A DNA stretch of 24,893 bases from the IMG/VR virus record IMGVR_UViG_2974665388_000001, positions 1 through 24,893 of that record; one strand, written 5' to 3'. Below the pieces are notes generated by a model. It did not search any database, was not told the origin of the DNA, and saw nothing but the letters and a program-made list of their open reading frames with translations. Shown one piece after another: positions 12,413 to 23,496 of this stretch (position 1 is the stretch's first letter; each line of letters begins with the position of its first letter). The position numbers were made by a program, and so were the translations under genes. This stretch comes from a virus.

Positions 12413-13459
12413 GTGATGGTGAAGACGGTAAAGGTTCCGGATGAGCTCTATGAGAAGCTAAAGGAGATGGCAGACTCCCAGGGCAAGGCAATACATGAGG
12501 TAATCTCAGGCCTCCTGGAGAGGATAGAGGTTGGGGAGGTTCAAATCAAGCTCCCAAAGCCAAAATTCATACCATTGAGGTATCCTGCATATTGTGTGTT
12601 AGGGAACCATAAGATTGACCCTGAGGAATACAGGAAGAATACTGGAAGAATACCATATGCTCTTTGGTTCCCAGAGCTAGGTGGAGTAATATGCATTGAT
12701 TGTTTGATAAAAGAGGTATTCACAAAGGAGGAGCAAGCGAAGGTTTTGACAAAACTTGAAGTAGAGATTAGGAAGCTTAGAGCAATCAAGAGACAGCTTA
12801 ACAAGGAAGTAGAGGAGCTTGCAATGCAGTATAGCGTTGCAGAGATATTTGCAAGGCTAGACTCGATTATTAATGAGATAAACGAAGCACTGAAGCTTGT
12901 AAGGAGCCTCGAAGACTATATTTGGTGTAAGGAGGAGGAGTGTGAGGAGAAGAAGAAGGTTGTTCTTGAGGCTATGGAGAAGATTGATGGCATAAAAGAG
13001 CAACTAGAAAAGCTGGAGCTACCCGAGAGTTGGGCTAAGAAGCTGATAAAGAAGGCTGCTTCAGAGTCATATACATCAACATCATATAGCAGCTACAGGA
13101 GGAGAAGGTGGGGGTCGATGGGATGGAAGCGGTTGAAAGAAAGAGCTATCAAGTCGAGGGTTATCAAAACGACGCATCGCCTTGTAGACGGCTCTTTGAA
13201 AGAGTACCAGCGAATCAACTACTACTTCCAGATGTACTTCTCGATTCCAGAGTGGTGGTTGAAAGAGGAGACGAAGCGTTACGAGATACTGCAAGTAGAG
13301 AAGGCGAGAAGCTTCTTAGTGCTACCCCAGGATATTACTCTGGAGGAGTTGGAGTCGTTGAGGAGAGAGATATCGAGCCTGATAAGAAAGGCGAGGAGAG
13401 GCAAACAGATATTTGCGACCAATGCGAGGAAGCGAAAAGAATCTGCAAGGGGAGGATGA
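12413..13459 (+). CDS. Multidomain protein: N-terminal RHH, C/H-C-x2-C zinc finger, coiled coil, basic C-terminal domain
   Basis: KTVKVPDELYEKLKEMADSQGKAIHEVI (RHH); YCVLGNH...ICIDC; long heptad region. Confidence 0.8.
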   Translation: MMVKTVKVPDELYEKLKEMADSQGKAIHEVISGLLERIEVGEVQIKLPKPKFIPLRYPAYCVLGNHKIDPEEYRKNTGRIPYALWFPELGGVICIDCLIKEVFTKEEQAKVLTKLEVEIRKLRAIKRQLNKEVEELAMQYSVAEIFARLDSIINEINEALKLVRSLEDYIWCKEEECEEKKKVVLEAMEKIDGIKEQLEKLELPESWAKKLIKKAASESYTSTSYSSYRRRRWGSMGWKRLKERAIKSRVIKTTHRLVDGSLKEYQRINYYFQMYFSIPEWWLKEETKRYEILQVEKARSFLVLPQDITLEELESLRREISSLIRKARRGKQIFATNARKRKESARGG

Positions 13460-14126: not shown

Positions 14127-14179
14127 GTTTTGGCACATACAGACTAAGTAGTAAGGTTTATTACCCCCCGTGCCAAAAC
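14127..14179. repeat. Perfect 10-bp inverted repeat GTTTTGGCAC-N33-GTGCCAAAAC flanking the recombinase TATA box (TTTATTA 14157-14163)
   Basis: Read directly; the arms are identical to those at 22691-22718. Confidence 0.9.
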
Positions 14180-21342: not shown

Positions 21343-21627
21343 GTGGAAGGCTTGGAAAGGGATGTCTTCTGTGTTGTGGCTGGTAAGGGCTATCAGGGGA
21401 CATCTGTAGTTGGGGCTACTATCGTGTGCTATAGGACGTATGATGACACAAAGCAGATAACTATCAAGGCTACTAAGGCTGGGAGGACAATGGGGGGTAG
21501 GAGTGTCTGGAGAATGTGGATTGAGGGAAGACCCGAGACCGAGAACACAGTATTTATTAGAAGGGCAACAGAGGAGGAGCTTAGGAGGATGGCACATCTC
21601 CTATTCGGGCACATGGTGCCAAAGTGA
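21343..21627 (+). CDS. Hypothetical protein, 94 aa
   Basis: GTG start, beta-rich composition, same strand as neighbours. Confidence 0.65.
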   Translation: MEGLERDVFCVVAGKGYQGTSVVGATIVCYRTYDDTKQITIKATKAGRTMGGRSVWRMWIEGRPETENTVFIRRATEEELRRMAHLLFGHMVPK

Positions 21628-22120: not shown

Positions 22121-22456
22121 ATGGTTAAGGTCTATGCCATTGACAGGGATGGAACTCTTGAGACTGGAGAGCCTCCAGGTCCTCTCAAGATATGCCAAGT
22201 CCTCAAGCTCCTCAAGCAAGGACACATCCTCTACTCCTATGGAAATTACAAGCTGATTGAGGAGCTGCCCATTCCCTATGCCCCAGGGAGGGACAAATGG
22301 CAGAGGCTCAAGTGGATAATGGAGAGGCATCCTGATGCAGAGGAGTACATCTATATTGATGATGTGGACCAAAAGATGCCTGGATGGAAGTGGCTTAAAC
22401 CCGAGGAGGCAGCAAGGATGATAGGACCGTGCCCCCATGAGGAGAGGGCCCTATGA
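22121..22456 (+). CDS. Minimal capless HAD-superfamily phosphatase
   Basis: Motif I AIDRDGTL (DxDGT), motif IV YIDD, Lys in RDKWQRL as candidate motif III. Confidence 0.75.
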   Translation: MVKVYAIDRDGTLETGEPPGPLKICQVLKLLKQGHILYSYGNYKLIEELPIPYAPGRDKWQRLKWIMERHPDAEEYIYIDDVDQKMPGWKWLKPEEAARMIGPCPHEERAL

Positions 22457-22498
22457 GGAGCGGGGAGCAATGACTGGGGAGCCCCACCTGAGGGGTGT

Positions 22499-22508
22499 GT
22501 GCCAAAAC
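22499..22508. repeat. Lone half-site GTGCCAAAAC
   Basis: Identical to the arms at 14170 and 22709. Confidence 0.8.
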
Positions 22509-22690
22509 CTCTCCTATAATAAAAATCTCTCCTTAGTAGGCTCGGGAAATGAGAAGAATAACCCCCCGGGATTGGGAGGCCCAAAGGAGAAACCATCAAA
22601 GGGGAAATGGCACACAGGACCATAATTCCAACTCTACATAGTCTAGGGAGTATCCTTAACTGAAGGCCTCTTCCTCATTGTTTAGAGGGG

Positions 22691-22718
22691 GTTTTGGCAC
22701 AGACACAAGTGCCAAAAC
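22691..22718. repeat. Perfect palindrome GTTTTGGCAC-AGACACAA-GTGCCAAAAC (10-8-10), candidate tyrosine-recombinase site / ssDNA hairpin
   Basis: Read directly; the architecture of two inverted arms with an asymmetric 8-nt spacer is typical of lox/FRT-type sites. Confidence 0.85.
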
Positions 22719-22758
22719 TGTGCCAGCATCATTGTCCATATGAAAAGGTCATCAGATA

Positions 22759-22839
22759 ATGGGGGTCCCAATCCGCTTGCTTATGGTATCCCAGCCATGA
22801 GGCTCATGGTATCCCAACTTCATCAGTCATGGTATCCCA
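22759..22839 (+). repeat. Direct repeats ATGGTATCCCA x3 (22783, 22806, 22829) plus degenerate ATGGGGGTCCCA (22759); exact 23-nt period; iteron-like
   Basis: 3' ends at 22770, 22793, 22816, 22839. Confidence 0.85.
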
Positions 22840-23034
22840 CATTATCATTACTATGTTTCAAAGCCCTCTTTCAAACATCATGAATCATTGATGTGAATAG
22901 GGCTTCGGCCTGTGCCAATTTGCAAGTTTTGAGTTAATAGGCATAAGAGTTTAGCTTATAGATGGTACAGAAGAGTTGTGTCTTTAAGCCAATCACCTTA
23001 CCAATTAAGGTATGTTTCCCAGCATACTCTAGCC

Positions 23035-23120
23035 TACCATCAAGTATGCTTTTTTCCATTCACTTAGAATACCCGAAGCTTACCATTCAGTATGCATAGT
23101 AATACCATCAAGCATACCAT
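23035..23120 (+). repeat. TACCAT-core repeats (23035, 23081, 23103, 23115), inverted relative to the ATGGTA cores
   Basis: TACCATCAAGTATGC, TACCATTCAGTATGC, TACCATCAAGCATAC read directly. Confidence 0.7.
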
Positions 23121-23496
23121 CATGGATGCTAGGTGGATATATCGGGGTATGCTCCTTAAAAGTGCGGTCTCCACAAGAAACAATATCGGTCGGAGGGGTT
23201 TGGTGGTGGATGAGGAATCATTCACCACAATCTTAAGGAGGCTTCATATGCCAGGATACCTCAAGGCTCTGCTGTACATCGCATATAAGTCTAAGAAGAC
23301 GGAGAACGGGGTTGTGCAGCTTCCGTTAGTGCTGAGAAGAAGCAAGTACCCGTTTAACCGCAACGACATCTATAGGCTTGAGTATGAGGGGATGATTGCT
23401 ATGGTTAAGGAAGAGAATAGGATAGTCGTTTCAATGCTTGCTAAGGGCTGGGAGGAGCTCAAGGCTTTAAGAGAAATCTTGGAGGTGGTCTCATGA
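23092..23496 (+). CDS. Winged-helix protein (real start probably ATG 23122 or 23149)
   Basis: C-terminal IYRLEYEGMIAMVKEENRIVVSMLAKGWEEL wing; the N-terminal codons overlap the repeats. Confidence 0.7.
   Translation: MHSNTIKHTIMDARWIYRGMLLKSAVSTRNNIGRRGLVVDEESFTTILRRLHMPGYLKALLYIAYKSKKTENGVVQLPLVLRRSKYPFNRNDIYRLEYEGMIAMVKEENRIVVSMLAKGWEELKALREILEVVS

Follow-up and report, generated by a model that had tools for sequence, protein, structure and literature searches.

The perfect palindrome at positions 22691-22718 of the analysed window (the whole stretch of 24,893 nt) is the central inverted pair of a half-site family that recurs non-randomly in the largest non-coding region and at the promoter of the tyrosine recombinase gene, and that is inherited together with this gene in related elements from hydrothermal metagenomes. 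Our preferred reading, to which we assign a probability of roughly 0.45, is that the palindrome and its accessory half-sites would form a duplex core site for the virus's own recombinase, with the pair at the promoter as a putative operator.

The window was treated as the genome of Aeropyrum coil-shaped virus (ACV). Its open reading frames lie almost all on the plus strand, it shows a strong G>C skew, and its genes encode two GT4 glycosyltransferases, a GDP-mannose dehydratase-like enzyme, a Nal1/trypsin-like protease and several RHH/HTH proteins; both its gene repertoire and its strand bias agree with the ICTV profile of the Spiraviridae. According to this profile, ACV has a circular, positive-sense ssDNA genome of 24,893 nt, the largest ssDNA virus genome described there, which is packaged as the plus strand, has all but one of its ORFs co-directional, and encodes a tyrosine recombinase and neither a Rep nor a polymerase; its mode of replication is unknown and it has no known relatives (PMC7416610). 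For a virus without a recognisable Rep or polymerase, the palindrome and the recombinase provide a concrete pairing of a cis-element with an enzyme, and a half-site family common to the control region and the recombinase promoter, conserved across previously unreported hydrothermal-metagenome relatives, makes the question testable.

Table 1. Positions of the palindrome, half-sites, repeats and associated genes in the window, with promoter arm pairs of ACV and selected relatives
Feature	Position	Strand	Remarks
RHH (ribbon-helix-helix) + coiled-coil protein P0029	12413-13459	+	Co-inherited with the recombinase; rival candidate half-site binder
Inverted exact 10-mer pair	14127-14179 (14127-14136, 14170-14179)		33 nt apart; brackets TATA-like TTTATTA (14157-14163); proposed operator
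Tyrosine recombinase gene P0001	14187-15413	+	408 aa from GTG; database form from ATG 14202, 403 aa
Exact arm copies	22499(+), 22691(-), 22709(+), 14127(-), 14170(+)		Three in non-coding region, two at recombinase promoter
Non-coding control region, ~635 nt	22457-23091		Holds every array element except the promoter pair
Third exact arm copy in non-coding region	22499-22508	+	Inside 22-nt element 22495-22516
Partial half-site TGGCACA (TGTGCCA on minus strand)	22608-22614	-	87 nt from left arm; corresponds to the relatives' fixed +75/+90 accessory half-site
Palindrome	22691-22718		Left arm 22691-22700 GTTTTGGCAC; asymmetric spacer 22701-22708 AGACACAA; right arm 22709-22718 GTGCCAAAAC; proposed duplex core site
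Partial half-site TGTGCCA	22719-22725	+	Abuts right arm; corresponds to the relatives' '-10' half-site
Three ATGGTATCCCA-containing iterons	22779-22839	+	Exact 23-nt spacing, beside half-site array; separate binding-site family (putative)
Partial half-site TGTGCCA, then A	22911-22917	+	~200 nt downstream
3-4 TACCAT-containing repeats	23028-23130	+	Far end of non-coding region
Promoter arm pair, ACV			GTTTTGGCAC / GTGCCAAAAC
Promoter arm pair, L005			GAATTGGCAC / GTGCCAATTC
Promoter arm pair, L003			TTTGCACTCC / GGAGTGCAAA
Promoter arm pair, L011			TTGCACCC / GGGTGCAA
Promoter arm pair, L041			GGCACTC / GAGTGCC
Promoter arm pair, L035			GACACTC / GAGTGTC

The palindrome and half-site array of ACV

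The initial annotation had described a perfect 10-8-10 palindrome in the largest non-coding region, with further full or partial arms at 22499, 22608, 22719 and 22911. Inspection of the window bore out each of these points: the 10-nt arms are exact inverted copies around an asymmetric 8-nt spacer, all of the additional arms are present, and the control region is the longest stretch without a credible gene (Table 1). The single ORF inside it (22437-22625, 62 aa) is of low complexity, and no gene was called at the homologous place in relatives. Across the 24,893 nt the palindrome is the sole perfect stem of at least 10 bp (loop of 3-12 nt); comparable stems were found in 15% of first-order Markov shuffles, so that the palindrome taken alone is weak evidence. 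The arm 10-mer GTGCCAAAAC is represented by five exact copies, counting both strands, against 0.9 expected, a number reached in none of 100 shuffles, and all of them lie either in the non-coding region or at the recombinase promoter. Its shorter form TGTGCCA occurs seven times: the stretch 22498-22917 holds five copies, the recombinase promoter has one (14131), and a single isolated copy lies at 21590. The 22-nt element around the third exact arm is 82% complementary to 22683-22704. Overall, the ACV half-sites conform to a consensus of approximately TGTGCCAAAACC, which extends to about 12 bp. The perfect 10-bp arms compare with the approximately 9-14 bp expected of tyrosine-recombinase core sites.

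A chance origin of the palindrome was rejected because of the five exact arm copies and the conservation described below. An intrinsic terminator was likewise discarded: no T run follows the stem on either strand, and the terminator scan raised no flag. With no Rfam match at gathering score and no tRNA, the palindrome also does not qualify as a known structured RNA or a tRNA relic.

In ACV (22569-22583 and 22760-22774) and, with a different sequence, in the related metagenome contig L001 (5696-5708 and 5870-5882), the palindrome is enclosed by a long-range inverted repeat of 13-15 nt whose copies stand ~160-176 nt apart. This repeat may represent either a structure or a further pair of binding sites. 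A perfect 13-nt palindrome, GTTTTGACAAAAC, with an arm-like outer part (GTTTTG / CAAAAC), was also noted at 12743-12755 within the gene of the RHH protein, possibly by chance.

The recombinase gene and its relatives

The ACV recombinase is composed of an N-terminal HTH_7/HTH_23 region, a long helix, a helical core-binding domain and a catalytic domain, and its residues R233, K264, H329, R332, W356 and Y366 are invariant among 22 homologues. The best PDB matches of its AlphaFold2 model (pLDDT 88.4), identified with Foldseek, were XerH-difH, archaeal XerA, Tn1549 Int and Cre, with a probability of 1.00 over 310-355 columns covering both domains. Catalytic residues and two-domain fold thus place the predicted protein among the tyrosine recombinases as an intact member with an extra, putatively DNA-binding, domain. 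At the sequence level, the ACV protein does not reach the curated cut-off of PF00589 and a six-frame PF00589 search of the whole window returned no match, while 16 of the 22 homologues match at E ≤ 0.01 and that of L036 scores 28.8 bits against a cut-off of 27.1; a search of PDB sequences with the profile of the recombinase family returned none at E ≤ 0.01.

The ACV array lies 7 kb from the recombinase gene, whose promoter is bracketed by the same exact 10-mer as an inverted pair. The right arm of this pair follows the TATA-like box and precedes the start codon, which is the position of a repressor. Since the arms of such promoter pairs stand 28-43 bp apart, too far for a core site, they are interpreted as an operator. 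No arm copy was found at the 3' end of the recombinase gene.

The protein search revealed about 25 recombinase homologues with 55-85% identity and more with 23-41%, and the metagenome scan yielded 45 loci, two of which are also present in Guaymas Basin MAG records; the scan of viral contigs with the recombinase returned no relative. The hydrothermal metagenome contigs, ranging from 2 to 48.6 kb (L001, L003, L005-L011 and L012-L028), encode recombinases 55-85% identical to that of ACV and possess a homologous control region. L001, L003, L006 and L007 are among the contigs with further ACV-like genes, namely those for the protease, glycosyltransferase, thioredoxin and small ORFs. Among the papers searched, none was found that reports these ACV relatives. 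In nearly all related loci, with recombinases 26-85% identical, inverted arms 28-43 nt apart surround the TATA box of the recombinase gene. They keep a GCAC...GTGC core, whereas the outer and inner positions vary symmetrically by lineage (Table 1), and the bracket persists at protein identities as low as 26-30% (L032-L046).

The ACV non-coding region aligns at the nucleotide level with those of L001, L007, L008, L010, L011 and L020, and a short-spacer palindrome occupies the homologous place in all six. Such palindromes are also present in L040 and L031 and, by pattern search, in L036, L041, L043 and L045; a further candidate in L033, at 20689, falls within a coding frame and was put down to chance. 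In the relatives, the palindrome has the core TTKGCAY, 8-9 nt, GTGCMAA. Of eight distinct sequences, seven or eight show pairing at arm positions 1-7, and the 7-bp cores are conserved; position 8 is usually mismatched, position 5 is altered on both sides in ACV, and the spacer sequence is variable. The central region is asymmetric and 8 nt long in ACV, and measures 8 or 9 nt between the conserved cores of the relatives, or 5-7 nt between their maximal arms. Additional half-sites are located at fixed offsets in the relatives, with left-type copies at -107 and -10 and right-type copies at +90 and +155/164. The check for conservation in related genomes, proposed in the initial annotation, therefore had a positive outcome: palindrome, accessory half-sites and promoter arms are kept with the recombinase down to 26-32% identity.

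L036, L040, L041, L043 and L045 combine palindrome, accessory copies (in steps of 62-65 nt) and promoter arms in a single block that immediately precedes the recombinase gene, the usual position for a recombinase's own site. Judging from its 127-nt terminal direct overlap, the 10,962-nt contig L036 is complete and circular, with a unit length of about 10.8 kb. Besides the recombinase and a pair of RHH proteins, its genes specify a GT4 glycosyltransferase, a lectin-like protein and a STIV B116-like protein, and no Rep is recognisable among them.

The RHH/coiled-coil protein of the relatives consists of approximately 220 aa and its gene adjoins that of the recombinase (L001:9153-10087; L035:4516-5175; L041:4206-4859). 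The ACV version, with RHH, Cys-rich and coiled-coil parts, is a 348-aa fusion matching two adjacent genes (92 and 218 aa) in relatives. Another co-occurring protein, ~70 aa in length (L001:10868-11098), is present in 14 loci. The recombinase gene is opposite to nearly all other genes in most relatives (L001:7871-9156, L003, L006-L011) and co-directional with them in ACV and its closest relative, L005, from which an inversion of gene and promoter in the ACV/L005 lineage is deduced.

The otherwise diverged relatives L001 (4700-5800) and L020 (6040-7140) share 96-100% identity along roughly 1 kb; the match reaches ~45 nt beyond the palindrome and then breaks off sharply. This segment points to a recent exchange, one end of which lies within the control region. 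As the break in identity falls 50-70 nt beyond the palindrome, outside the spacer, it leaves no footprint of exchange at the palindrome itself, and its position is neither support for nor evidence against such an exchange. The palindrome centres (window 22701-22708; L001:5760-5766; L008:4236-4240; L010; L007) have one strongly purine-rich strand in every relative, and the centre seems flipped between the close relatives L001 (GGGGGAG) and L008 (CCCCCTG), with an identity of 6/9 when reverse-complemented versus 3/9 as read. These flipped centres could be a trace of hairpin-mediated template switching.

Readings of the half-site array

The simplest reading of a motif that travels with the recombinase gene, forms an inverted pair with accessory copies and brackets the gene's own promoter is that it is the binding site of the recombinase. 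We infer that the array, made up of half-sites of ~9-12 bp, would act on the double-stranded replicative form and that the Xer/Cre-like recombinase would be its likeliest binder, two monomers occupying the two arms and exchanging strands across the asymmetric 8-bp centre. The single half-sites at 22608, 22719, 22499 and 22911 would then be accessory sites shaping the synapse, like DR1/DR2 in TnpI/IRS, and the job of the system would be to convert circular multimers of the replicative form into monomers before single-strand packaging. The arm pair around the TATA-like box would let the enzyme repress its own promoter. The association between palindrome and tyrosine recombinase that had been put forward from the sequence of the control region gains support from the same arm bracketing the recombinase promoter, from its conservation with the gene in relatives, and from the Xer/Cre-like fold and catalytic intactness of the enzyme. 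The 10-8-10 layout fits a duplex core site, for which dimer resolution is the most economical function. Against this model stands the core-to-core spacing, which is 8 in some relatives and 9 in others, a variation not usual for a single recombinase family. The distance of 7 kb between array and gene in ACV, the score of the ACV protein below the PF00589 cut-off and the co-inheritance of an RHH/coiled-coil protein that could read the half-sites also weigh against it.

The half-sites, palindrome included, could alternatively serve another viral DNA-binding protein, foremost the RHH/coiled-coil protein, as operators or as centromere- or origin-like sites. That protein would control the recombinase gene and give the control region its organisation, with no strand exchange at the palindrome, a proposal we regard as somewhat unlikely. 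Its gene and that of the recombinase are no more than 4 kb apart in 22 of 25 loci, and 8 kb apart in L033; no other gene family was found to accompany the recombinase in near as well as remote elements. Short repeats, direct or inverted, are the typical targets of RHH dimers, the L036 array is situated between divergent RHH and recombinase genes with one half-site ~50 nt from the RHH start, and single half-sites at regular steps of 62-87 nt resemble a regulatory or partition array as much as a recombination site. It is with the recombinase promoter, however, that the arms are most tightly and constantly associated, whereas the RHH gene is found downstream of the recombinase in most loci and lacks arms of its own. 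Moreover, a half-site of 7-12 bp with a centre-to-centre distance of 15-18 bp fits Xer/Cre-type sites well, while RHH subsites are usually shorter and closer together. As both proteins track the same phylogeny, the sequence fits either of them as the half-site reader, and the RHH/coiled-coil protein could be that reader or a partner of the recombinase, such as a directionality factor. Very unlikely, in our estimation, is an attP core at which the recombinase, acting as an integrase, would insert the replicative form into the host chromosome. The enzyme does fall within the integrase/Xer superfamily, 'integrase' is the label that one distant homologue carries in its source, and arm-like accessory sites around a core resemble the organisation of attP. 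Nevertheless, no tRNA or tRNA-like segment was found in the genome, and among the genomes of 185,579 species (one per species, scanned with two stringent peptide patterns) the recombinase family was detected only in two short metagenome-assembled contigs without chromosomal context. Comparison of the 661-nt control region with 351 genomes, from the class of one MAG and perhaps not including Aeropyrum, gave chance-level matches of 17-24 nt, none spanning the palindrome. ACV infection is chronic and non-lytic, and its profile describes no integrated form (PMC7416610). Resolution is thus favoured over integration because no chromosomal copy of the family was seen among the 185,579 species genomes, no tRNA-like segment in the viral genome and no attB-like match in the 351 genomes; the lack of integrated recombinase copies in the species genomes fits an episomal role.

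The initial annotation further considered the palindrome as a 10-bp hairpin on single-stranded DNA. In silico, the clean stem does fold at 37 °C, with ΔG of -9.6 kcal/mol, but it melts at about 74 °C (ΔG ~0) and is unfavourable at 90 °C (+4.3 kcal/mol), values that derive from a nearest-neighbour DNA model extrapolated in temperature for DNA free of proteins and compatible solutes. The energy of the clean stem was used here instead of the ViennaRNA minimum free energy with DNA parameters, which shows lonely-pair artefacts at 75 °C and above. A hairpin on the packaged strand, functioning as a packaging or virion-end signal, as a start for the complementary strand (cf. Ff), or as a substrate cut and rejoined into unit circles, appears quite improbable. 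It would suit a genome packaged as a circular plus strand (PMC7416610) and the sole perfect stem of at least 10 bp, which is retained in the centroid fold of the region. Left-type half-sites upstream and right-type half-sites downstream of the palindrome make nested pairings possible, and the flipped spacers of L001 and L008 might be explained by hairpin-mediated template switching. RNAalifold also gives a three-way fold with some two-sided changes; this fold was not relied on, being based on 6-7 sequences with ACV misaligned by MAFFT in the loop and many outer pairs of the G-T type. Opposed to the hairpin are the host growth temperature of 90-95 °C (PMC7416610) and the stems of the relatives, which have 6-9 bp, are A/T-rich with a recurrent mismatch at arm position 8, and are likewise unfavourable at 90 °C (+3.1 to +5.6 kcal/mol). 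Promoter arms 28-43 nt apart around a TATA box are sensible in duplex DNA only, and the fold of the whole region is unexceptional (z = -1.7). In attC and CTXphi attP(+), the stem rebuilds two recombinase binding boxes around a central unpaired region. The ACV hairpin, in contrast, pairs arm with arm into one 10-bp box with an 8-nt loop, and nested pairings give tandem rather than inverted boxes, so the tempting analogy with these folded single-stranded sites is structurally unsound. The suggestion that nicking at this site replaces a Rep clashes with the chemistry of the enzyme. Tyrosine recombinases form a 3'-phosphotyrosine and a free 5'-OH, while HUH Reps provide a 3'-OH primer; with the 3' phosphate attached and the 5'-OH freed, a tyrosine-recombinase nick cannot prime like a HUH Rep, although the enzyme might still resolve or circularise products. 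We give a low likelihood to a wider role, in which the recombinase would process replication intermediates at the palindrome, for example from concatemers or dimers into unit circles for packaging, and in which recombinase, array, iterons and RHH/coiled-coil protein would make up the replication module of a Rep-less archaeal virus family. If true, site-specific recombination would be an obligatory step of ssDNA genome production and not housekeeping resolution, and an enzyme essential for unit-length genomes would imply a new way of replicating ssDNA.

Comparison with known sites and neighbouring repeats

Judged by its sequence organisation, the element most likely joins the known core-plus-accessory sites of recombinases, in an unusual host element, and a duplex core site for the viral recombinase would make it the equivalent, in an archaeal virus, of Cre/loxP or TnpI/IRS, equipped with an autoregulatory operator of its own. 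In TnpI/IRS, one motif serves both the inverted core pair and directly repeated accessory sites that confer resolution selectivity, the 14-bp motifs being 4 bp apart with a cleavage stagger of 6 bp (PMC2847244). The ACV family similarly has a common motif in its inverted core and accessory copies, arms that can extend into the centre as the 14-bp IRS motifs do, and a site that adjoins the recombinase gene in L036 and L041, as it also does in L040, L043 and L045, but is 7 kb from it in ACV. Its accessory copies, also at fixed offsets, differ in being 62-87 nt apart, on both sides and in mirror orientation, whereas those of the IRS are two adjacent direct repeats. The ACV enzyme differs as well in its additional N-terminal HTH_7, and the putative system in a half-site pair that brackets an archaeal TATA box and in its occurrence in an archaeal ssDNA virus.

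Cre/loxP (13-8-13) and the single-recombinase Xer systems XerH/difH and archaeal XerA/dif, to which the closest structural matches of the enzyme belong, share with the ACV site (near-)perfect inverted arms around an asymmetric centre of 6-8 bp, and the proposed role in multimer resolution of a circular replicon. The arms of the ACV family are nonetheless shorter (7-10 bp conserved), the core-to-core distance is 8-9 nt, extra half-sites are present, and the enzyme has no sequence-level match to a solved recombinase. The likeness to attC and attP(+) consists in inverted repeats and in the combination of a tyrosine recombinase with an ssDNA genome, the difference in the single box of the ACV hairpin as against the two boxes around a central bubble. 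Ff phages (M13/f1) have one large non-coding region, circular ssDNA and co-directional genes in common with ACV, together with a stem-loop as candidate signal on the packaged strand; their hairpins are long imperfect stems of tens of bp that are stable at host temperature, compared with 10 bp at 90 °C in ACV, where moreover the arm recurs as separated half-sites at a promoter.

Finally, iteron plasmids with autoregulated initiators (RepA, RepE, pi) offer a parallel in regularly spaced direct repeats (23-nt spacing in ACV) beside inverted repeats that overlap the promoter of a gene for a DNA-binding enzyme. The ACV iterons (ATGGTATCCCA), however, differ in motif from the arms, and the enzyme is a tyrosine recombinase, a class not known to have an initiator role. 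The 23-nt iterons are regarded as a second putative family of binding sites, distinct from the arms and possibly an origin. At the same place as in ACV, L001 carries 23-nt-spaced GGGACACCATCAGAAC repeats. The iterons are kept in position and partly in sequence, as ATGGTATCCC in ACV (22779-22839), GGGACACCATCAG in L001 (5629-5667) and GGGGAACATCAG in L036 (3260-3345).
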